This document shows positions 3,525-48,225 of a DNA stretch of 64,000 nt, in pieces. The stretch comes from Anaerolineales bacterium. Lineage in GTDB: Bacteria > Chloroflexota > Anaerolineae > Anaerolineales > Villigracilaceae. Where the stretch lies: contig DAIUCC010000008.1 of NCBI GenBank assembly GCA_036846365.1, positions 12,922 to 76,921 on the forward strand, written 5' to 3'. Within the stretch, counting starts at the first letter, position 1; each line of letters starts with the position of its first letter. Under the pieces are notes generated by a model that made no database searches, had not been told where the DNA came from, and saw only the letters and a list, made by a program, of their open reading frames with translations. The position numbers were made by a program, and so were the translations under genes.

Positions 3525-4076
3525 TTAGTCTTTGAAGACCGGCAAATGTCCGAGCGCGGTAATGTGCATCCACTGGGCGCGGTCGCCTTCGGTGAAGATG
3601 GCGGCCTCGGCGGCCACGCTGGCCCCGGTCTTGTCGAGGATCAGGCGCATGCCTTGCAGCGTCGAGCCGGTGCTGATGACGTCGTCCAACACGACCACCT
3701 TCTTCCCCTGGATGACCTCGCGGTCCTTCTCGTCGAGGATCAGGGTCTGCGGCTGCCCCGTGGTAATGGACAAGGTCTCAGTCTGGATGGCGTCGCCCAT
3801 GTACGGCTTGTAGGACTTGCGCAGCACGATGTAGGGCTTGTTCATCTCCGCGGAAAGCGCGTACGCCAACGGGATGGATTTGGCTTCGGCGGTCATGAAC
3901 AGGTCGAAGTCCAGGTCCTTCAGCCGTTTGGCTAATTCCTTCGCGCAGGCCTGCACCAGTTCGGTGTCGCCCAGGATATTCAGGATGGCGATGCGCAGCC
4001 CGGGGGCCACTTCGAACAATCGCAAGTTCCGCTTGACGCCCGCCACTTCCACGGGATAGGTATCATATTGCGCCAT
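3525..4076 (-). CDS. type I phosphoribosyltransferase (adenine/xanthine PRTase-like)
   Basis: PRPP-binding motif VVVLDDVISTGSTL; 183 aa. Confidence 0.7.
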   Translation of the reverse strand: MAQYDTYPVEVAGVKRNLRLFEVAPGLRIAILNILGDTELVQACAKELAKRLKDLDFDLFMTAEAKSIPLAYALSAEMNKPYIVLRKSYKPYMGDAIQTETLSITTGQPQTLILDEKDREVIQGKKVVVLDDVISTGSTLQGMRLILDKTGASVAAEAAIFTEGDRAQWMHITALGHLPVFKD

Positions 4077-4155
4077 GACTTCCTCCAGAAATATGTATAG
4101 ACGGGGCGAAGTTTATCACAACCTTTTTGAAAAACCAACGCGGTATAATCCTTTC

Positions 4156-11107: not shown

Positions 11108-12184
11108 TTATTTCCGCTTCTTGCCGTTGCGTTCCTCTTCTACACGGGCGAAGATCATGCGGCCCGCGGCGGTCTGAAGGACCTTGGTGACCGAAACGTC
11201 CATGTACTCGCCGATGTATTCCTTGCCGTTCTCCACGACAACCATTGTGCCATCGTCCATGTAGCCGACGCCCTGCCCCATTTCCTTGCCTTCCTGGATG
11301 ATATTGATGCGCAACAACTCACCCGGCAACACCACCGACTTGACCGCATTGGCCAGTTCGTTGATGTTGAGCACGGTCACACCCTGCAACTCAGCGATGC
11401 GATTAAGGTTGTAGTCATTGGTCAGCACGGGACTCTTGAGCTGCTTGCCGAGGACGATCAGTTTGTCGTCCACTTCGCGGACGCCCTCCACGTCGATGTC
11501 GCTGATACGGACGAGGATATTGGGCAGCTTTTGCAACTCGGCCAGCACTTCCATGCCGCGGCGTCCGCGCTGACGGCGCAGGCCATCGGGCGAGTCGGCG
11601 ATGTATTGCAGTTCGTTCAAGACGAAACGCGGGATGAGCAGCGTACCGGGCAGGAAGCCGGTCTTGGCGATGTCGGACACGCGCCCGTCGATGATGACGC
11701 TGGTATCGAGCAGGATGTTACGGTTGAGGTTGGTCCACGAGGAGGACGAACCGCTTTCGTTGCGTCCACTCAGGGCGCTGAGCAGGCCCATGATGTCGCC
11801 CTGGCGCATGACGAACAACGAGACGCCCAGGTAGGCGAAGATCAACACCCCGATGAAGGGCAGGATGCTCCCAAACGGGCTGGGCAGCATGGAAAGCGGA
11901 AAAGCCAGCAGGGCGGCCGTCAGCAGGCCCATCACCAGCCCGGTCAGGCCGGCAAAAAGCGTCTCGGCGGCCAGCCGTCCCAGCAGGGACCGCAGGGCGC
12001 GCGCGGGACGCGTGGTCAGATAAGGGGCGAAAAGTAACCCGGTCAGGGCCCCCAGCATGGAAAATCCCAGAGTGTAGCCAGTAACATCGGCTGCGGTGGC
12101 GTTCGAAAAATTGTATCCCCAATAACCGGCTGCGCTGCCAAAAACAATCATGAAAACGATGCGCAAAATGAATTCTACGCTCAT
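11108..12184 (-). CDS. PIN/TRAM-domain membrane protein (YacL-like)
   Basis: Four N-terminal TM helices, PIN domain (ILLDTSVIIDGRV...), C-terminal TRAM-like domain; sits immediately upstream of cysS as yacL does in Firmicutes. Confidence 0.8.
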   Translation of the reverse strand: MSVEFILRIVFMIVFGSAAGYWGYNFSNATAADVTGYTLGFSMLGALTGLLFAPYLTTRPARALRSLLGRLAAETLFAGLTGLVMGLLTAALLAFPLSMLPSPFGSILPFIGVLIFAYLGVSLFVMRQGDIMGLLSALSGRNESGSSSSWTNLNRNILLDTSVIIDGRVSDIAKTGFLPGTLLIPRFVLNELQYIADSPDGLRRQRGRRGMEVLAELQKLPNILVRISDIDVEGVREVDDKLIVLGKQLKSPVLTNDYNLNRIAELQGVTVLNINELANAVKSVVLPGELLRINIIQEGKEMGQGVGYMDDGTMVVVENGKEYIGEYMDVSVTKVLQTAAGRMIFARVEEERNGKKRK

Positions 12185-35712: not shown

Positions 35713-36492
35713 TCAGGTGGTTGCGATCAAGTAGCGAAAGTTATTGGTTAGATAATACCCACCTGAACTTGTCTTGAAAGGCGCGATGACTCGTAAAATG
35801 AGATCCCGCACCACGTCCTCGCCTTTGGCCTGGATCGCCCGTATGGCCGGGCCCGACGACAGCAACCCGCGCAGGGCGGTCTGTTCGTCGGGATAGTTCC
35901 ACGGGCATTCGACCTTCTTCACACCCGTAGGGGTCAGCCCTGCCTTGACGGCGAGGGCCTCCAACGCCCCATCCGCCGAAAGCGCAAATGGACCGGGGGC
36001 ATCCGGTGGCGGCGGGGGCAATAATGAACCCATTGCCTTGATATAGGCCGTGGCCTCGCTTTCTTCCGGCTTCCCAAAGACAGCGATCACCACTGTTCCA
36101 GTCCGCGAAACGCGACTGGCTTCCCGCAGCGCGTGGACGGGGTTGGCGGCGAACTGAAACGAACTAAAGCCCGTGACCACGTCGAAGGTGCGGTCGTCGT
36201 AGGGCAATTCCTCCATTTCGCCCGTGCGGAAATCCCCATCACGCACACGCTCGCGGGCAAATGCCAACAACGGCTCGGACGCATCCAGCCCGCTGACCCG
36301 CGCGCCGCGTCGGGCCGCCATCTCACAAAAGATGCCCGACCCACACCCAATGTCCAACACGGATGTATTCGCGCCCACGGCGGTTTCCTGCAAAACCGCC
36401 TCGAAGAGCGGCACAGCCACGCTTTCCTGCACATCTGCCCAATCTTTGGCCCGCGCGCCCCAAATCTGTCCCTGCACGTTTGCTGTACCCAT
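35713..36492 (-). CDS. class I SAM-dependent methyltransferase
   Basis: Motif I VLDIGCGSG. Confidence 0.8.
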   Translation of the reverse strand: MGTANVQGQIWGARAKDWADVQESVAVPLFEAVLQETAVGANTSVLDIGCGSGIFCEMAARRGARVSGLDASEPLLAFARERVRDGDFRTGEMEELPYDDRTFDVVTGFSSFQFAANPVHALREASRVSRTGTVVIAVFGKPEESEATAYIKAMGSLLPPPPPDAPGPFALSADGALEALAVKAGLTPTGVKKVECPWNYPDEQTALRGLLSSGPAIRAIQAKGEDVVRDLILRVIAPFKTSSGGYYLTNNFRYLIATT

Positions 36493-36553
36493 AAAATTTC
36501 TCCTTTTAAAACCAATATTTTTGTTCCATGGCTCAATTATGATTCAAAGTCAT

Positions 36554-37147
36554 CTACAGTCGCTTTCGGCGATGCCGCAGAAACAAGATCAATCCTGGAA
36601 CGGCGAGAACAACCAGACTCAACCATAAAAAATCATATGTTCCATCGGGACCTCTTGGTTCTTGTCCAGTGAAACCTTTGACGCTGGCTACGACATCATC
36701 TTGAACATCGAACCAGGTTCGGATTTGCAAGGGTCCTGCCGAGAATGGGTCTCCATTGACAAAGAATATGGCGCGGGAACCTTCGCTAAAGGCAAAATTG
36801 GGTGCACAGACCCAAAAATATCCTGAAATCTTAACTATCTTGGGACCGCGTCCCTTCAAGTATCGCTCAACTTGCACAGTGAGGATGCTGTTCCCGTCAG
36901 AATCAGGAACCCAAGTCTTCACGGTTCCTTCAAGCACGATTTGCGCGTCCTGAATGACACCAGCAACTTGCGTTCCAACTGGGATTGGAGTGGGCGGCAC
37001 ATAACCGGGCGGGACCAGGGTCGGCTCACAAGCCAGTGCTGACCGAGGTGCGGATCCAAAGACAAGCATGAGCGCCAGAAGGATGGTACCCAAAAAACAA
37101 TACGCGATGAGGTAAGTCTTGGATCTCATAATGGATTTGGCATTCAC
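36554..37147 (-). CDS. hypothetical secreted protein with C-terminal TM anchor (island gene)
   Basis: Signal peptide, C-terminal hydrophobic stretch + RHRRKRL. Confidence 0.45.
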   Translation of the reverse strand: MNAKSIMRSKTYLIAYCFLGTILLALMLVFGSAPRSALACEPTLVPPGYVPPTPIPVGTQVAGVIQDAQIVLEGTVKTWVPDSDGNSILTVQVERYLKGRGPKIVKISGYFWVCAPNFAFSEGSRAIFFVNGDPFSAGPLQIRTWFDVQDDVVASVKGFTGQEPRGPDGTYDFLWLSLVVLAVPGLILFLRHRRKRL

Positions 37148-37209
37148 TCCGTAAGCGCAGCAAGGATGGGACGTACGTTTTGTCGGGCAACGACATATGA
37201 GTGTGCTGG

Positions 37210-37770
37210 TTATTTGCGTTGCAGCTCGTAATTAAGAACAACAATCCCGCAGTCAAAAGATGTGGATTTCACCAATACCAGATTTTGTCTGCTGTCCAGT
37301 TCTTTGAAAATTGACATTCCATTACCAATCGCAACTGGATTGATAAACAGATGAAACTCATCGATCAATCCGTGCTTGATGAGAACCGATACAAATGCCA
37401 CGCCACCATAAGCAATGATGTCTTTACCGTCTTGTTTTTTTAGTCTTGCGATTTCTTCAACCAGGTCGCCTTTTGCCAAAACAGTATGATCCCATTCTGA
37501 CTTCTCAAGCGTTTTGGTAAAAATAATTTTTTTCGTGCTATTGAATTTATCAGCGCCTTCTTGTTCTGGATGAGAAGCCCAATATGGGATAAAACCTTGA
37601 GCAAGTTTCCGCCCAAGAAGGATGCAGTCAACTGGCTCCATTATTTCTCCCACATGTTTTTTAAGATTATCGTCCCAATCTTGCGCCGTCCAATCCATTT
37701 CCCCGTTCTTTCCTGCAATGTAACCATCAACAGTCATCTGGACTTGGAGTTTTAGTTTTCTCATTATCAT
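37210..37770 (-). CDS. dihydrofolate reductase-like (RibD C-terminal domain) family protein, cassette-like
   Basis: LQVQMTVDGYIAG...ILLGRKL...AYGGVAFVSVLI pattern of RibD_C/DHFR-like family; AT-rich. Confidence 0.7.
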   Translation of the reverse strand: MIMRKLKLQVQMTVDGYIAGKNGEMDWTAQDWDDNLKKHVGEIMEPVDCILLGRKLAQGFIPYWASHPEQEGADKFNSTKKIIFTKTLEKSEWDHTVLAKGDLVEEIARLKKQDGKDIIAYGGVAFVSVLIKHGLIDEFHLFINPVAIGNGMSIFKELDSRQNLVLVKSTSFDCGIVVLNYELQRK

Positions 37771-37799
37771 TTTCCTTTTGTAAAATTATTTTACTTTTA

Positions 37800-37914
37800 A
37801 GTTATTTTTGCGAAGCCTTTTAATCTCAAAAAGGCCGAGGTTTAAAAACACTGTATATAATGGCGCCGATTGGACGTCGTCCATGACAAGCGTCCAGTGC
37901 ACGCTGTGTTGAGC
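37800..37914 (-). repeat. degenerate attC-like repeat (only R''/L'' half conserved)
   Basis: plus strand ...gtgcacgctgtgttgagc (GTTGAGC = GTTRRRY) matches conserved end of the other copies; other half diverged. Confidence 0.4.
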
Positions 37915-37942
37915 GGTTTGTCCCTACGATGATCGCGCATTC

Positions 37943-38743
37943 TCACTCTGTGCTTTTACGGGCGATTTGGTCAACGATTCCTGGTGCAATAAGTCTCAGC
38001 CAGAGCCCAAACTTACCTTGTAAAGTCATCACAACTTCTCGTTTGCGCTTTTGAACTGCTTGAATGATCTGATAAGCGCAGGTTTCCACTGGCATCGCTT
38101 CCTTTTCATGCACTGAGATTTGACCGGTTGGATCACCATCCAGTTTGAGCCCTCGGCTGCTAATCCCTGTTCTGACCCACCCTGGGTAGATCATCGTTAC
38201 ACTTACACCCGTATCTATCAATTCAACCCGTAGCGAGTCAAAGAAACCCGCCATCGCATGTTTACTTTCTCCATAGCCATCGGCAGTTGCTGACGGAAAT
38301 TTTCCGCGCAGGCTAGATATACCGACTAACCGTCCCTGTGTCCTTTTCAAATAGGGCAGTGCATAATGTGTGCAATAAACACTCCCGAAAAAGTTAACCT
38401 GTGTCACCTGCTCGAATAGAGCAAGATCTTGCATTTCGTCAAACCTTGACTCTACCCCAAAACCAGCATTGTTGATCAGCGTATCTACCCTTCCATATTC
38501 TGCAACGGTTTCTTCAATGAGGGTTTGGCATTGTGCTTTGATGCCAACATCGGTGGGGATTACGATGACTTTTCCACCCAATTGTGTACATTGCTGCGAA
38601 ACTTCTTCTAGCCGCTCAACATTTCGTGCCCCCAAAGCAAGCCAAGCTCCTTTTCTCGCCAGTTGCAATGCCAATTCCTGCCCGATTCCATAGGATGCTC
38701 CTGTAATAACCACGACATTTTCTCGAAAGGTAGTATCTTTCAC
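37943..38743 (-). CDS. SDR-family oxidoreductase (cassette 5)
   Basis: TGASYGIG, YGESK catalytic motif; GTG start with AGGAG RBS. Confidence 0.85.
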   Translation of the reverse strand: MKDTTFRENVVVITGASYGIGQELALQLARKGAWLALGARNVERLEEVSQQCTQLGGKVIVIPTDVGIKAQCQTLIEETVAEYGRVDTLINNAGFGVESRFDEMQDLALFEQVTQVNFFGSVYCTHYALPYLKRTQGRLVGISSLRGKFPSATADGYGESKHAMAGFFDSLRVELIDTGVSVTMIYPGWVRTGISSRGLKLDGDPTGQISVHEKEAMPVETCAYQIIQAVQKRKREVVMTLQGKFGLWLRLIAPGIVDQIARKSTE

Positions 38744-38763
38744 TTGTTACTCCTATTGTGGCT

Positions 38764-38893
38764 GCCTAACGGTTTGCGTTACTTGCGGGCGGGCAGGACG
38801 TGAACAGCACTCAAAAACGGAATCCTGCCGAGGCATTGAAAACTGCCTGAAATCGCACAGACTCCCACTTGTCGGCTGCACGCTGTGTTGGGC
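38764..38893 (-). repeat. attC-like recombination site (130 bp)
   Basis: plus strand GCCTAAC...GTTGGGC (RYYYAAC ... GTTRRRY), conserved GGTTTGCGTTAC and TGCTGCACGCTGTGTT boxes, internal palindromes; 5 nt after stop of epimerase gene. Confidence 0.7.
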
Positions 38894-38898
38894 CTATT

Positions 38899-39888
38899 CT
38901 AAGCTGATTTCATATACCCATTCTCTTCGAACCAATTTATAGCCTTTCTAATGGTCATCTCGATTGGTGTCTGTGGTAGGCCGAGTTCATTCACTGCCTT
39001 GGAGCAGTCATACCATTCTGTCATTTTGCCGATCCTGACTTCGCTAGCTGTTACAACAGGTGTTTTTTTTGTTATGGAAGCAGCAACTTCGAAGATGTGT
39101 CCTAGCGCAAGTGCTATATGATAAGGTAATTTGACGGCCGGTGGCTTTACGCCAGCAATATCCGCAATAAGCTTTAAATAATCTTGAACCGTGAAGTTCC
39201 TATTTCCCAAAAGATATCTTTCGCCTACTCTGCCCTTTTTTGCAGCAAGGATATGGCCACGGGCCACATCCTCGACATCGACGATATTTATTCCTCCATC
39301 AATATAGCCGGGCATTTTTTGCTTGATGACATCAATAATCATTTGTCCTGATGGCGTTGGCTTTATATCATTCGTACCGATAACAAGAGTAGGATTGACC
39401 ATTACAACTGGCAATCCCCGTGTAACAAAAATTCTTGCCTCATTTTCGGCAATATATTTGGACATGGAATAGTGATCGCCGGATTCCCAATAATTAAAAG
39501 CCTTCTCTTCATTAGCAGGCACAGAACCACTCGCAGCAATTGCATTGTTGGTGCTGGTGTAGATGACTTTCTCCACTCCAACTTCAAGAGCTGCTTGGAG
39601 GGAAGCCTTCGTACCGCCGACATTGATATCATAGAGTAATTTGGGATCCGGGGCCCAGTGAGCAAAATATGCAGCCGTGAAATAGAGTGTGTCACAACCG
39701 CTAAGAGCCCTTTTCATAGAATCGCCATCGCGAATATCTCCATATACTCTCTCAACATCGAGCTTGTCGATGTTGAGCGTATCACTGGTTTTTCTGATTA
39801 AGACCTTTACCTCTTCCCCATTTTTGATTAGTTCTCTCGTGATTGCTGAGCCTATAAATCCTGTTGAGCCAGTAACAAGTTTCTTCAT
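38899..39888 (-). CDS. NAD-dependent epimerase/dehydratase family protein (cassette 4)
   Basis: KKLVTGSTGFIGS Rossmann; YSMSKY catalytic YxxxK; GAGG RBS before ATG 39888. Confidence 0.85.
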   Translation of the reverse strand: MKKLVTGSTGFIGSAITRELIKNGEEVKVLIRKTSDTLNIDKLDVERVYGDIRDGDSMKRALSGCDTLYFTAAYFAHWAPDPKLLYDINVGGTKASLQAALEVGVEKVIYTSTNNAIAASGSVPANEEKAFNYWESGDHYSMSKYIAENEARIFVTRGLPVVMVNPTLVIGTNDIKPTPSGQMIIDVIKQKMPGYIDGGINIVDVEDVARGHILAAKKGRVGERYLLGNRNFTVQDYLKLIADIAGVKPPAVKLPYHIALALGHIFEVAASITKKTPVVTASEVRIGKMTEWYDCSKAVNELGLPQTPIEMTIRKAINWFEENGYMKSA

Positions 39889-39916
39889 TTTTTGATGCCT
39901 CACTTTATGTGTATAA

Positions 39917-40047
39917 GCCTAATGGTTTGCGTTACCTGCGCTGGGGCCGTGGACGGCGAAGCCGTCCAGCCAGAAAAATGCTGAGGCGTGGAAAAATGCT
40001 TGAAAACGGCGCAGAATCCCCGCCGTCTGCTGCACGCTGTGTTGGGC
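39917..40047 (-). repeat. attC-like recombination site (131 bp)
   Basis: GCCTAAT...GTTGGGC; internal hairpin ggacggcgaagccgtcc; near-identical left half to copy at 41908. Confidence 0.7.
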
Positions 40048-40068
40048 GGCGTTTCGTATCTAACAGGC

Positions 40069-41001
40069 TCATTGGTTCATCTTTCCTACCTTGTAGGCAA
40101 AGTAATATGGATTATTTTTCAACTCGTTTGCCTCACGTATCAACCCAACAGCATTTTCAGCGGTTGAGAATAGGCTAACAGAACCTGCGATTTTCATAAT
40201 CTCTGATGCAATTTCAGGTGGGAATAAATATGAAAACCCTGCTAATGAAAACCCGAAAACAGCACTTGTTGCCAACCAAGAACGCTTTTTTGAAAGTTGT
40301 TGAAACTTTAAATTCAATTCTCGCGTTTTTTCGTCAACCCTGACCATTAATTCTAGTAATTTATCTTCTGGTGCAATTTGGCGATTCCGAATATTCAAAT
40401 CGTTTAAAGCGTTGTGATATTCTGAAAAGATTTCTTCATCTAACGAAAGCCTTATTAAATCAGATAATGAGATATTATCTGCGTTGGGAAGGAACATCTT
40501 GAAATTAAGGTTTTTTGTCTGACTACCGCCTGACTGAAATTTCTCTGATACCGCGGCGCAGCCATAATCACTTGCGTTGAATTCATCTAAAGTGTCCACT
40601 CCTTGAGAACTTATTTGTTCATAGTGGTAAGGAATAACATAGCATAGCCCTCTTCTAATTACTTCGTGGTATTCGCTAATCCACTCAATATATTCATTTG
40701 GAATATCAACTCCATAAAAATCATCCGTTACTGTCCCATCCCCATGAATAACGAGCGAAGACGAATACAGAACCGATTTTTTCACCACATCGTTGTTTGG
40801 AAAAGCAATTGAAAGAGGTAAAGTGTTCATGTTGGCAGCAGTATTAGTAAATATATTACGCCATTCTTTCAGCGCTTCAAGGACTGCAAGATTACCCTTC
40901 CATTCATGCTTTGTAGCCTTGAACTTATTTGCAAAGTTACTATCGATTTTGTATCCAAGATTTTCTTCTAAAGAATTCAATACGGATGCATGAGATTTCA
41001 T
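40069..41001 (-). CDS. hypothetical protein, very AT-rich (cassette 3)
   Basis: 310 aa, no recognisable motif; flanked by attC-like sites. Confidence 0.5.
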   Translation of the reverse strand: MKSHASVLNSLEENLGYKIDSNFANKFKATKHEWKGNLAVLEALKEWRNIFTNTAANMNTLPLSIAFPNNDVVKKSVLYSSSLVIHGDGTVTDDFYGVDIPNEYIEWISEYHEVIRRGLCYVIPYHYEQISSQGVDTLDEFNASDYGCAAVSEKFQSGGSQTKNLNFKMFLPNADNISLSDLIRLSLDEEIFSEYHNALNDLNIRNRQIAPEDKLLELMVRVDEKTRELNLKFQQLSKKRSWLATSAVFGFSLAGFSYLFPPEIASEIMKIAGSVSLFSTAENAVGLIREANELKNNPYYFAYKVGKMNQ

Positions 41002-41028
41002 TACAAGTCTCCAAACTTCACGTAAGCC

Positions 41029-41158
41029 GCCTAACGGCTTGCGTTACTTGCAAGTGGGCGGGACGCGGCGAAGGCTCGAAAACAGAAACCTGCTGAGGCT
41101 TTGAAAACCACCAAAAAATGCGGCGACTCCTACTTGTCGGCTGCACACTGTGTTGGGC
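41029..41158 (-). repeat. attC-like recombination site (130 bp)
   Basis: GCCTAAC...GTTGGGC with same conserved boxes. Confidence 0.7.
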
Positions 41159-41189
41159 CGCTCGCTGGAGAAGTCGCGTTTCACTTGAC

Positions 41190-41873
41190 TTATACCTTTG
41201 CCATTATCTGATCATAGTATTGGACAGCCGCTTCGATATCGTCTCGACTAACATCAGGCCAGTATGCCTGGGTAACATAAACGCAGGCATCGGCACTTTG
41301 CCACAACAGAAAATTACTTAATCGCTGCTCACCACTGGTACGAAGCACCAAGTCAACATCAGGCAATCCAGTTGTCCATAAATAATGTTCAATAGTAGAC
41401 TCGGAAATTGTTTCCATCCTTGCGCTTTCTGCTAACAACTTACGCGTCACATTTACCAATTCAGCCCGCCCTCCATAATTGAAAACAAAATTGAAGATTT
41501 CAGGGCCATTATGTTGGGTTAGAGCGACTGCATCATCCAGGGCTTGTAATGCTTTTGGCGTAAGTTCATCTCTTCGACCGCAATGCACAAAGCGAACACC
41601 ACTTTGATGTAATTTGCTTACAAACTCAGGCAAATGTTTTTCCAGAGAACTCATGATATAGCCTACCTCAGCTTTAGGCCGATTCCAATTCTCTGTGGAC
41701 CAGGCATAAGCCGATACGATTTGAATACCAAGCGCATGGCAAATCTCTAATACATGGGGAATATGTTCAAATCCGGCTTTGTGTCCGGCACTTCTTGAGA
41801 GACCCCGTTGTTGTGCCCAACGTCCGTTGCCATCCATAATCAGCCCAATATGTCTCGGTATGATCATAAGCAT
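41190..41873 (-). CDS. cis-prenyltransferase (undecaprenyl-diphosphate synthase family) (cassette 2)
   Basis: IPRHIGLIMDGNGRWA and RTSGEQRLSNFLLWQ signatures of UppS family; low GC unlike a core uppS. Confidence 0.85.
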   Translation of the reverse strand: MLMIIPRHIGLIMDGNGRWAQQRGLSRSAGHKAGFEHIPHVLEICHALGIQIVSAYAWSTENWNRPKAEVGYIMSSLEKHLPEFVSKLHQSGVRFVHCGRRDELTPKALQALDDAVALTQHNGPEIFNFVFNYGGRAELVNVTRKLLAESARMETISESTIEHYLWTTGLPDVDLVLRTSGEQRLSNFLLWQSADACVYVTQAYWPDVSRDDIEAAVQYYDQIMAKV

Positions 41874-41907
41874 CCACTTTCAAACTAGATCGGTTAGTTA
41901 TCTAGCG

Positions 41908-42014
41908 GCCCAACGGTTTGCGTTACCTGCGCTGGGGCTGGGACGGCGAAGCCGTCCAACCAGAAAAAGGCTCAGGCGTAGAATCCAACCCGTCAAGTGC
42001 ACGCTTTGTTGGGC
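41908..42014 (-). repeat. attC-like recombination site (107 bp, shorter variant)
   Basis: GCCCAAC...GTTGGGC; shares left half with copy at 39917. Confidence 0.65.
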
Positions 42015-42103
42015 ACACTTTGGGTATGCAAGACTCACGCCGGGAAAAGGATTATGAAACAATTTGTAATAACTTATGCTGTTGCTATAAGTGTCTATCT
42101 GCA

Positions 42104-42640
42104 TCACAATTTTTCTTTCAAAACGAACTTTCTGTAACTTAGTAATTTTTGAATATCGTCAGGATGAGGAAGAATTTTCCACTTTTCAGTAAGGGCATAT
42201 GCTTGCGGCTCTGCTGTTTCTTCAACAAATTTCTTCTCCTTATCAATTCCTAACTCAAACCCAATGCGGGGGTGGTTGTAATAGACATGAGAAAATTCGT
42301 GAGCCAAAATATGTATTTTTGTTTTATGTTCAATGAAATTAGAAAAAGGATTGAAAATTACAAAACAACGTAAGTTAATTTTATTAAGTAAGGCACATGC
42401 AGGTGTATCGAATTGCCATAAGTCATTAACTTGTTTACACAGAATAAAATCAAGATTTTCGAGAATTTTATCTCGGCTATCTTTGGGAATACTATCCCAG
42501 GTTTCTACAAATAAATCTTCGTAAACCCTTTTTCGTTCGGCTGAATCATCATTGGAAAAATACAGTAAATTATTCATGACAGGTAAGTACAATTTTCTGA
42601 TCTCCATAATAACCATGCCTACAGCCCTTATTGAATGCAT
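42104..42640 (-). CDS. HExxH-motif protein, putative ImmA/IrrE-like metallopeptidase (cassette 1), very AT-rich
   Basis: HEFSHVYYNH; start codon overlaps a core-site-like GTTAGAT (minus strand GTTAG|ATG). Confidence 0.55.
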   Translation of the reverse strand: MHSIRAVGMVIMEIRKLYLPVMNNLLYFSNDDSAERKRVYEDLFVETWDSIPKDSRDKILENLDFILCKQVNDLWQFDTPACALLNKINLRCFVIFNPFSNFIEHKTKIHILAHEFSHVYYNHPRIGFELGIDKEKKFVEETAEPQAYALTEKWKILPHPDDIQKLLSYRKFVLKEKL

Positions 42641-42649
42641 CTAACTATG

Positions 42650-42679
42650 GTGTTATACAGCAATTCTGCTGTATAACAC
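42650..42679. promoter_or_regulatory. perfect 12-bp inverted repeat with 6-nt spacer, candidate operator
   Basis: GTGTTATACAGC-aattct-GCTGTATAACAC, between candidate promoter and first cassette ATG. Confidence 0.4.
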
Positions 42680-42696
42680 CCTTTATCTTTCAAAAA

Positions 42697-42704
42697 TTAT
42701 ACAT
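42697..42704 (-). promoter_or_regulatory. extended -10 promoter element reading into cassette array
   Basis: minus strand TGTATAAT. Confidence 0.35.
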
Positions 42705-42724
42705 CCGATTCCCAGGCGAATTTC

Positions 42725-43321: not shown

Positions 43322-43471
43322 GGGATTCTCCTATTGCAATCATACAACAGTTTGATATACTCGCCCAAACCTTTCCCCGTCCATCGTCAACCAAAACGCA
43401 GAGGCTTTATCTTCTCCATCCGCCTGCCTTTGTGCCCATTGTGTCCTTTGTGTTAAAGTCTGGATACCCCC

Positions 43472-46180: not shown

Positions 46181-46214
46181 AAAGCGGGGTGGACCTCGGA
46201 GGTCCACCCCGCTT
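46181..46214. repeat. palindromic element / terminator (family GGTGGACCT-n5-AGGTCCACC)
   Basis: aaagcggggtggacctcggaggtccaccccgctt between convergent ppc and yeiH. Confidence 0.5.
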
Positions 46215-46218
46215 CTAT

Positions 46219-47208
46219 CTATAAAATCCCCGATAAATACTGCGCCGCCAGCGATGAGACGGCCACCAGCACCCAGGTCAACGCGCCGAGGTAAATGGCG
46301 CGCGGCCCCGCCTGGACGAACTTCCGCAGGTTGGTGTTCAAGCCGATGGCCGACATGGCCGCGATGATCAGGAACTTGCCCGTCCAGGCCAGGGATGTAC
46401 TGACCGTCAACGGGATCAGGCCCAGGCTGCGGAGGATGGCCGCCAGGATAAATCCCAGAATGAACCAGGGAAAGACGCGCGCCAGGTTGAACTTCGTCCC
46501 GCTTTCCTTATCTTTTGCAAAGACCAAAGCCAGCGCCAGCGTGACAGGCACGATCATCAGGCTGCGCGTCAACTTGACGATGGTGGCAAAGCTGCCGGCC
46601 GCGTCGCTGTAGGAATATCCCGCCGCGACCACCGAAGAGGTATCGTTAATGGCCGTGCCCGCCCACATACCGAAACCCGTATCCGAAAGGTGCAGCAAAT
46701 GGCCGATGAGCGGGAAGAGAAAGACCGCGATCACGTTGAACAGGAAGATGGTGGAAATGGCGTAGGAGATGTCCTGATCCTCGGCATCGATGGCGGTGGA
46801 TGCCGCCGCGATGGCCGACCCGCCGCAGATGGCCGTCCCCACGCCGATCAGGGCCGAGAGCTTGCGCTCGATCTGGAAATAGCGCCCCGCGAAATAAGCG
46901 GTCACAAATGCGACACTCAACGTCACCACCAGAATCAACAGCGAAGCCTGTCCCACGCGGATGACGTTGGCCATGTTCATCTCGAAGCCCAGCAGGATGA
47001 CCGCCAGTTGCAACACATACTTGGACGTAAACTTGATCCCGTCATTCAGCGTGGATGGCAGCTGCAGGACAGAAGCCACGAGAATGCCGAGCGTGATCCC
47101 GAAGACGGGTCCGCCCACCACGGGCAGGAGTTTTCCCAATTGATAGGCACCCAGAGCCAGCGCAAAGGCCAGCAGCAATCCAGGCAAAATGTTCTTCCAT
47201 GATTTCAT
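46219..47208 (-). CDS. yeiH: YeiH-family putative sulfate exporter (UPF0324 membrane protein)
   Basis: Polytopic; divergent to a LysR regulator exactly as yeiE-yeiH in enterobacteria. Confidence 0.75.
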   Translation of the reverse strand: MKSWKNILPGLLLAFALALGAYQLGKLLPVVGGPVFGITLGILVASVLQLPSTLNDGIKFTSKYVLQLAVILLGFEMNMANVIRVGQASLLILVVTLSVAFVTAYFAGRYFQIERKLSALIGVGTAICGGSAIAAASTAIDAEDQDISYAISTIFLFNVIAVFLFPLIGHLLHLSDTGFGMWAGTAINDTSSVVAAGYSYSDAAGSFATIVKLTRSLMIVPVTLALALVFAKDKESGTKFNLARVFPWFILGFILAAILRSLGLIPLTVSTSLAWTGKFLIIAAMSAIGLNTNLRKFVQAGPRAIYLGALTWVLVAVSSLAAQYLSGIL

Positions 47209-47308
47209 CGCTGTGTTCTCTTTTCAGATGAATTTTCACAAGGACTATATCAGGCAGGCGGGTATCTGTAAAATAGTATAATTTTATGGTGTCCATAGGC
47301 ATTTCCTT

Positions 47309-48184
47309 ATGAATCTCCGCCACCTGAAGATCTTCCTGGTCGTGTATGAACACCGCAATATGACCCACGCCGCGAGGGCGCTGTATCTCAGCCAACCTTC
47401 GGTCAGCCAGGTGATCTCTGAGCTGGAAGAGCATTATCACGTGCGGCTGTTCGAGCGCATGAATCGTCGGCTGTTTCCCACGCCCGCGGGAGAGCAACTG
47501 GCCGTCCGCGCCAGGGAGATCCTCTCCCTGCTCGATCAGACTCAACAGGAACTGTCCGACTTGAGCGGGGGCAGCAGTCTGCGCATCGGCGTCAGCCTGA
47601 CGATCGGCACCCACATCCTGCCAGGCTTGATCTCGAACTTCAGCCAGCGCATGCCAGGTGTGGAGGTCTTTTCGCTGGTGGACAACACCCACGTCGTCGA
47701 ACAACTCCTGCTGGAGAATCGCATTGACCTGGGGTTGGTCGAGGGCAGCGTGCAATCGCCCGACATACTGGAACGCCCCATCAGCGAGGATCAGCTCGTG
47801 ATCGTGGCGGCGCCCACTCATCCGCTCAGCAGCAAGAAAAACGTCACCCTGGCGGACCTGGAGAATGGCCGCTTCATCATCCGCGAGGAAGGCAGCGGCA
47901 CACGCGCCACCTTCGAGAATGCCATGCAGGCCGCAGGCGTGACCTGGCAAATCGCGGGCGTGTACAACAACATCGACGCGATCAAGCAGGCGGCGCAATC
48001 CAATCTGGGGCTGGCCATCGTACCGCGCATCTCCATCGAAAAGGAGCTGCGCCAGGGGCGTGTGCGCCTGATCAAGGTGCAGGGGCTGAGTCTCTCACGC
48101 AAGTTCAGTTTCATCTTTCATCGCCAGAAACAGATTACACAGATCATGCAGACTCTGATGGATTGTTATCCCGCAGATGTGTGA
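47309..48184 (+). CDS. LysR-family transcriptional regulator (YeiE-like)
   Basis: HTH ...MTHAARALYLSQPSVSQVISELE; intergenic has TATAAT and ATAG-N9-TAT. Confidence 0.85.
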   Translation: MNLRHLKIFLVVYEHRNMTHAARALYLSQPSVSQVISELEEHYHVRLFERMNRRLFPTPAGEQLAVRAREILSLLDQTQQELSDLSGGSSLRIGVSLTIGTHILPGLISNFSQRMPGVEVFSLVDNTHVVEQLLLENRIDLGLVEGSVQSPDILERPISEDQLVIVAAPTHPLSSKKNVTLADLENGRFIIREEGSGTRATFENAMQAAGVTWQIAGVYNNIDAIKQAAQSNLGLAIVPRISIEKELRQGRVRLIKVQGLSLSRKFSFIFHRQKQITQIMQTLMDCYPADV

Positions 48185-48199
48185 ACGTTAAACAAGCAG

Positions 48200-48225
48200 G
48201 GTGGACCTTACAGGTCCACCTCACT
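48200..48225. repeat. second copy of GGTGGACCT-n5-AGGTCCACC palindromic element
   Basis: aagcagggtggaccttacaggtccacctcactt. Confidence 0.45.

Follow-up and report, generated by a model that had tools for sequence, protein, structure and literature searches.

The stretch analysed here, called the window below, comprises 64,000 nucleotides of contig DAIUCC010000008.1 from an Anaerolineales bacterium. Between two GC-rich core genes it holds an AT-rich island of about 6.2 kb (36493-42724) that is, with high confidence, a chromosomal integron cassette array with attC sites and a remnant of the attI site, from which the integrase gene (intI) has been lost, that is, a cluster of attC sites lacking an integron integrase (CALIN). 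The GC content is 0.434 in the island and 0.595 in the remaining window, and the GC content at third codon positions (GC3) is 0.30-0.49 in island genes vs 0.68-0.86 in flanking genes, so that composition and codon usage both agree with the contrast that an earlier, sequence-only reading had drawn between island and core. All seven open reading frames (ORFs) of the island lie on the minus strand.

Four full copies of a repeat stand within the island, at 38764-38893, 39917-40047, 41029-41158, and 41908-42014, together with a half copy at 37810-37917. The full copies begin with GCCTAAC, GCCTAAT, or GCCCAAC and end with GTTGGGC, in keeping with the R'' (RYYYAAC) and R' (GTTRRRY) patterns of attC sites. 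A 17-nt box near the 3' end occurs five times against 0.26 expected, and a 19-nt box near the 5' end four times against 0.00 expected; outside the island neither box occurs in the 64 kb. The sequence-only reading had placed these four repeats, a fifth, half-degenerate copy ending in GTTGAGC at 37914, and conserved inner boxes, and its positions and termini are confirmed, with box counts far above expectation. The ORF map likewise agrees with its description of minus-strand genes that each have a repeat a few to about 90 nt past the stop codon, as the repeats lie downstream of minus-strand genes at distances of 5-89 nt. The succession of one gene unit and one repeat holds for the five rightmost genes and fails for the two leftmost (36554-37770), which have no recognisable attC.

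Each cassette begins at the C that follows the ...YAA of its attC and extends as far as the ...YAA of the attC that comes next toward attI, with one minus-strand ORF inside. Numbered from the attI end, cassettes 1 to 4 have the four full repeats, taken from right to left, as their attC sites. Cassette 1 (41914-42644), whose attC is short (107 nt), encodes a protein of 170-178 aa (42104-42616/42640) with an HExxH motif and no family match. Cassette 2 (41035-41913) carries a UppS-like polyprenyl diphosphate synthase (41190-41873; PF01255, 235 bits; TIGR00055, 227 bits, cutoff 110), and cassette 3 (39923-41034) a 310-aa protein without a family match (40069-41001). An HpnA-like NAD-dependent sugar epimerase (38899-39903; TIGR03466, 381 bits, cutoff 368, plus PF01370) occupies cassette 4 (38770-39922). 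Cassette 5 (37810-38769) contains an SDR oxidoreductase (37943-38743; NF004825, 337 bits) and ends in the half-degenerate attC, which has kept the R''/L'' half alone and has lost the R' crossover side (nhmmer E=6.5e-9, HMM positions 45-138).

Two further low-GC genes on the minus strand lie distal to these cassettes (36554-37770), one for a reductase of the RibD_C family (37210-37770) and one for a 197-aa protein that has a hydrophobic segment at its N terminus (36554-37147). Both are probably fossil cassettes; no attC remnant was found left of 37810 or right of 42016. The cassette contents thus amount to a UppS-family prenyltransferase, an epimerase, two reductases or oxidoreductases of the SDR and RibD_C families, and three proteins without family matches, and neither a defence system (PADLOC) nor a resistance gene was matched among them. 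The neighbouring methyltransferase gene (35713-36492) was considered as part of the insertion, since a relative with an empty site lacks it. This was rejected as unsupported: its GC3 is core-like (0.70), and it is present in relatives with other cassettes or almost none.

An attC family of the Anaerolineales

A scan of GTDB species genomes with both terminal boxes listed at least 119 stretches (loci labelled with L-numbers), nearly all of them in metagenome-assembled genomes (MAGs) of Anaerolineales, Anaerolineae, or Chloroflexota. An nhmmer profile seeded from the four window copies and run on these loci found at least 491 family copies. They always stand in arrays of one orientation, where neighbouring copies start a median of 809 bp apart. 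Of the 340 intervals between repeats, 321 have their longest ORF on the strand opposite to the repeat, and the window is arranged likewise. Rfam searches of the repeats, with gathering as well as E-value thresholds, gave no attC-like match; Rfam appears to hold no attC model, and this result is thus uninformative.

In several genomes the family stands beside integron integrases. In a tblastn search with R100 IntI1, full-length homologues of 47-51% identity adjoin the repeats in L012, L024, L027, L057, L085, L102, and L107, while a further copy is cut by the locus end (L043) and another is degenerate (L025). The six homologues tested scored 409-463 bits over the whole of NCBIfam TIGR02249 (cutoff 265), and NCBI already lists integrases of this clade under the label 'integron integrase [Anaerolineales bacterium]'. 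When the repeats are set to the plus strand, the integrase lies to the right, on the plus strand, and points away from them in all intI-bearing loci except L107. This geometry is like that of aadA1 (minus) and intI1 (plus) in R100, and the plus strand of the window is therefore taken as the attC bottom strand, with the cassettes read on the minus strand. The layout of L107 (JACPVF010000013.1, 472001-475907) is unusual: it has an intact intI, the family attC sites begin 26 nt past its stop codon, and the array is oriented toward intI. The intI ATG of this locus is only about 60 nt from the upstream ORF, with no typical attI, and the locus is at a contig end.

The boundaries of the cassettes provide a second line of evidence. 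Recombination at G|TT of R' (AA|C on the plus strand) puts the outer part of R' in the neighbouring cassette, and mutually complementary ends are therefore expected around each ORF. When the 12 nt following G| were set against the 12 nt that precede |C in the next repeat, the mean contiguous run of pairs across the ORF was 9.3, vs 4.95 within one repeat and 4.97 in random pairs. Runs of at least 9 were found in 74% of the cross-ORF pairs vs 9-10% of the same-repeat or random pairs, and Watson-Crick pairing across the ORF reaches at least 93% at positions 1-8 from the crossover. The two outermost R-box pairs are poorly paired within one repeat because the outer part of R' belongs to the neighbour cassette. 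In the window the cross-ORF runs are 10 bp for the UppS cassette, 9 bp for the 310-aa cassette, and 6 bp for the epimerase cassette.

Covariation across the family outlines the folded structure. The consensus of 415 distinct copies reads GCCYAAC-GGTTT-GCGTTACC.GC..., about 70 variable nt, ...GTC.GG-TGCACGC-TKT-GTTRGGC, with termini GCCYAAC...GTTRGGC in which AAC and GTT are more than 98% conserved. A 24-pair structure, made up of a 7-bp R box and a 17-bp L-stem, was evaluated in 140 copies drawn from as many loci as possible, the long stem being picked out by mutual information. Of its cells 93.7% are paired vs 83.2% in column shuffles, and compensatory (double) changes occur in 15 of the 24 pairs, 13 of them in the L-stem; none of 500 shuffles matched any measure, and sliding the register by 1-3 columns reduced pairing to 34-45%. 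RNAalifold recovered only part of the L-stem. The plus strand, as the bottom or recombinogenic strand, forms an R box (GCCYAAC/GTTRGGC) and a long L-stem with an unpaired spacer between them, and bulged bases interrupt the 3' arm of the stem. Conservation of these bulges (T111, and G117/C118 opposite T20) exceeds 99%, and in both the extra base is on the 3' arm of the plus strand; the R100 aadA1 attC in the same orientation has an extra G and T on the 3' arm of its bottom strand. Bulges, gene orientation, and integrase position thus all suggest one polarity. As a strand test, the asymmetry between G-T and A-C pairs gave a weak signal for the L-stem; the extended R box has 274 G-T against 64 A-C pairs, mostly at positions 10-12, which is taken as supportive only.

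With its arrays beside integron integrases, its covariation, and its cross-ORF end pairing, the repeat of about 107-131 nt is an attC site of an Anaerolineales/Chloroflexota-specific family, as the sequence-only reading had proposed. Its further proposal of ORF-attC cassettes read along the minus strand is upheld by the orientation of genes and integrases and by the pairing across ORFs.

The family reaches considerable scale in relatives. Anaerolineales MAG loci L014, L035, L038, L081, and L108 hold about 10 cassettes per 8 kb, and contiguous blocks of at least 16-24 kb occur in JASGIA010000002.1 (L036 with L038; L119 and L013 adjacent) and JABFGC010000002.1 (L030, L122, and L103 adjacent). 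Some Anaerolineales MAGs have several separate arrays per genome, a scale that corresponds to sedentary chromosomal integrons. Cassettes like those of the window recur: a UppS homologue of 87% amino acid identity is cassette-borne in L016 too, and RibD_C homologues are cassette-borne in six other arrays (including L074, L029, and L020). Family arrays are also found on mostly short contigs binned elsewhere, in L034 and L092 (MAG of the archaeon Nitrosotenuis), L059 (Saccharibacteria), L111 (Draconibacterium), L120 (Aequorivita), L127 (Pseudomonadota), L051 (Bdellovibrionales), and L016 (Nitrospirae). Mis-binning likely explains these off-phylum arrays, with cross-phylum transfer as a further possibility.

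The attI remnant and the missing integrase

At the right end of the island, the region 42645-42724 (plus strand) resembles attI and the promoter side of intI. It aligns with the interval from the first cassette to the intI ATG in L012, L043, and L027, as well as with L132. The core site ATCTAAC (42639-42645, plus strand) fits RYYYAAC on the plus strand and reads GTTAGAT on the cassette strand, and it forms a ...YAAC|TA(T/G)G junction as in intI-linked loci; the crossover would fall between A42644 and C42645. In L012, L043, L027, and L024 the intI-linked attI consists of ...GCCCAA|C, then TA(T/C)..TTTATACAGC..GCTGTATAAA, CCCC..GGGG, and a second palindrome, TTATACAGCAATTTCGCTGTATAAT; the palindromes are followed by a ATTATACA box and then, about 20-25 nt on, by the ribosome-binding site (RBS) and the intI ATG. 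The window sequence ...GCATCTAA|C TATGGTG TTATACAGCAATTCTGCTGTATAACACCCTTTATCTTTCAAAAATTATACATCCG... can be aligned with these regions, with one 14-bp palindrome (GGTGTTATACAGCA-ATTC-TGCTGTATAACACC, 42649-42680) plus the ATTATACA box. Homology stops about 20 nt short of the expected intI ATG, at the stop codon (42725) of a GC-rich core gene for a 198-aa protein.

Both attI palindromes (TTTATACAGC-N0-5-GCTGTATAAA and TTATACAGCAATTTCGCTGTATAAT) contain ACAG-N8-CTGT, and the window keeps the second alone. They are located at 42649-42680 in the window, L012:993-1060, L043:7185-7260, and about 10620-10700 in L132 (reverse strand), and could be accessory sites for IntI or an operator for intI regulation.

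No IntI or remnant of it was found in six frames of the 64-kb window, either by tblastn with IntI1 or by hmmsearch with an IntI profile and the heuristic filters off, which agrees with the sequence-only reading that no integrase is present. Two other statements of that reading have to be revised. It had recognised no attI, yet 42639-42724 is homologous to the attI beside intI in relatives; and it had offered the option of a distal part of a chromosomal integron, yet the attI-proximal end is present and intI is absent. Given the attI homology and the absence of IntI, the island is therefore an integron minus intI and minus one attI palindrome, and not a distal fragment of an array. Of the parts of a complete integron, the adjacent intI is missing, and attI at the integrase-proximal end is identified by homology. 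The definition of a CALIN, at least two attC sites with no integron integrase within 4 kb, describes what is found here. In the proposed course of events, the deletion of intI would have reached back to about 20 nt before its start codon. Transcripts of the cassettes would come either from read-through of the 198-aa core gene, which lies upstream and points the same way, or from a promoter within the attI remnant.

The same attI type is kept without an intact intI in L020 (with a 5' stub of about 20 codons), L032, L060, L064, L067, and L104, and in L070 an internal deletion of intI has left the box II residues PHTLRRSFVTH. Judged from these loci, decay of intI is recurrent in this integron group. 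In L020, L032, L060, L064, L067, L070, L104, and the window, the next long ORF past the remnant lies on the cassette strand; these are ORFs only, and the agreement is perhaps due to chance.

States of the locus and rival explanations

Relatives of the locus were chosen as members of the 90%-identity cluster of the 198-aa protein, and they display the locus in several states. The window-type array is found in eight independent assemblies of one study. L132 and L133 have the same integrase-less junction between attI and flank, with both palindromes present, and share the UppS and 310-aa cassettes with the window at 97.8% nucleotide identity; their attI-proximal cassettes encode proteins of 265 aa and 234 aa in place of the 170-aa protein. 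Identity between window and L132 ends right after ...CGGCCCAA|CGGTTTGCGTTACC, and both limits of the attI-proximal differences fall on AA|C boundaries. Across the ORF of its first cassette, L132 shows 10 Watson-Crick and 2 G-T pairs, with a non-consensus GTTGTGC core. In L134 one AT-rich ORF stands beside a remnant of the attI seen in the window. L135-137 combine an attI of a different, L057-like type with one glycosyltransferase gene and lack intI. In the sister genome GCA_016191845.1 the site is empty (L129), with 228 bp between the 198-aa and 122-aa genes; a different contig of this genome (L107) encodes an intact IntI, accompanied by attC sites of the same family.

With an integrase-less junction shared by window and L132 and whole-cassette differences at the attI end, there was therefore probably at least one insertion or excision of the IntI type after the loss of intI. 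Such turnover would imply an integrase acting in trans, on the assumption that the junction is identical by descent, and an IntI encoded at another place in the genome may thus still add and remove cassettes.

Several further differences were observed at these loci. Missing from L132 (14439-14449) are the cassettes for the epimerase and the SDR enzyme, together with the attC that belongs to the 310-aa gene (window 37872-40043); by its sequence this is an ordinary deletion and not an excision by IntI, because the endpoints are off the AA|C sites and a 7-nt filler (CTTATAG) is present. At L135:2645-2863 the L057-like attI is joined to the same 198-aa stop codon and cut just past a -10-like box; that two identical deletions occurred independently seems unlikely. 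In L134 (reverse strand, about 11330-11410) and L135 (reverse strand, about 4040-4150) the methyltransferase gene is directly preceded by an attC-like element of about 75 nt (GCCTAAAGGCTT.TATAAG...GTTTTGTTAGCC), which is absent from the window. The far-side neighbourhood varies as well (window 43322-43471 and 46200-48200 vs L129:8319-9988): relatives have a TetR and SDR pair between the phosphoenolpyruvate carboxylase gene and the 198-aa gene, and the window has LysR and PF03601 genes that are absent in L129.

Three other explanations of the island were weighed. It is scarcely credible that the repeats are intergenic palindromes unrelated to integrons, such as terminators, repetitive extragenic palindromes, or miniature inverted-repeat transposable elements. 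They are palindromic, lie just past stop codons, have highly similar copies, and match no Rfam family; against this, the 64 kb hold no copy outside the island, complementarity of the termini across an ORF is unexpected for a self-contained hairpin, and elsewhere the family occurs solely in ordered one-ORF arrays and beside integron integrases, rather than in the dispersed manner that the sequence-only reading had named as grounds for giving up attC. A complete integron split by rearrangement, of which the island would be the distal segment with an intact intI just outside the window, is improbable. Cury et al. (2016; PMC4889954) name rearrangement among the origins of CALINs, and the window is part of a 207-kb contig, but the attI-proximal end lies within the window and abuts core genes that are syntenic with relatives. 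A break could fall in the 20 nt that separate the intI promoter from the RBS, yet this equals a loss of intI from the locus.

Whether the array still exchanges cassettes is a separate matter. It might be a frozen relic with immobile cassettes, in which strain differences arose through homologous recombination or ordinary deletion and not through IntI, and this is possible, if doubtful. The absence of intI from the window, the distal attC sites that are degenerate or absent, the reduction of attI to one of two palindromes, and the loss of the epimerase and SDR cassettes in L132 through a deletion with ends at 37872 and 40043, off AA|C, all suit a relic. However, where window and L132 differ near attI, the differences begin and end at cassette boundaries, the ends of the first L132 cassette are complementary across its ORF despite a non-consensus core, the sister genome combines an intact IntI with the same attC family, and the four window attC sites are intact, R' cores included.

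Some results also weigh against an integrase-less integron array, or against parts of that account. The bulges are on the arm expected of a bottom strand, but their spacing and part of their identity differ from the T/G extrahelical bases of the Vibrio cholerae repeats (VCR) and aadA7. Minimum free energy folding of single copies was, on either strand, no better than that of shuffles (z -2.1 to +0.5). Folding of the bottom strands, which the sequence-only reading had put forward as a check, thus gave insignificant energies for single copies, while an R/L hairpin with conserved bulges emerged from covariation; it is family-wide covariation, and not the energy of any single copy, that shows the predicted hairpin. 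A promoter scan found nothing above shuffle expectation, and the closest IntI homologues (P0038-P0040), through which the window genome's own intI was sought, come from other samples. Finally, one simple deletion does not account for the second attI type that L135-137 have joined to the flank at this very position.

Beyond the cassette array with a lost integrase, a wider reading may be put forward tentatively, and it is on balance unlikely: Anaerolineales would maintain recurrent integrase-less, attI-bearing platforms from which intI is repeatedly deleted, whose attI and cassettes persist downstream of a co-directional host gene, and whose cassettes are exchanged through an IntI elsewhere, amounting to a distributed integron in which several attI platforms depend on a single integrase. 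Under such an arrangement, two unrelated attI types at precisely one junction in close strains would represent replacement of the whole platform.

Comparison with known integrons

Integrons of Chloroflexi, the CALIN category, and intI loss as a proposed origin of CALINs have been described before, with intI pseudogenes near only 5% of CALINs and attI not scored (Cury et al., 2016; PMC4889954). What is added here is a retained attI, an empty site, and evidence of turnover at the strain level. The locus documents one route by which a CALIN originates, deletion of intI with attI retained, and offers an empty site and strain variants for comparison. Furthermore, Anaerolineales are abundant in groundwater and wastewater, and their cassette arrays, with a well-defined attC family of about 130 nt, are very large and homogeneous. 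Searches for cassettes in Chloroflexota metagenomes can draw on the covariance model and the attI consensus that this family readily provides. If servicing in trans is true, integrase-less arrays count as active parts of the cassette pool and not as relics. The current picture of integron biology is unchanged.

The array resembles sedentary chromosomal integrons such as the Vibrio cholerae superintegron in its long (about 130 nt), homogeneous, and lineage-specific attC family, in the chromosomal arrays of relatives with at least 10 cassettes per 8 kb, and in cassettes that are mostly of metabolic or unassigned function with a GC content below that of the host. Unlike the Vibrio cholerae superintegron, it resides in a Chloroflexota (Anaerolineales) host, its attC sites differ from VCR in sequence, L-stem, and bulges, and the window array is short and has no integrase.

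With the class 1 integron In2 of Tn21/R100 (intI1-attI1-aadA1-attC) it shares cassettes transcribed away from a divergent intI, RYYYAAC/GTTRRRY cores, and a bottom strand with extra bases on the 3' arm, and the IntI of relatives is 47-51% identical to IntI1. In contrast to In2, the window element is neither mobile nor transposon-borne, has no resistance genes, and has attC sites twice as long, and the attI of this group has TTATACAGC...GCTGTATAA palindromes that are absent from attI1.

The closest fit is to CALINs, as the window has four intact and one partial attC, no intI within 4 kb or even 20 kb, about five cassettes, which is a typical size, and no antibiotic-resistance cassettes. It departs from them in retaining a remnant of attI and the intI promoter (P_int), which is direct evidence of intI loss, and in a strain comparison that suggests continued turnover.

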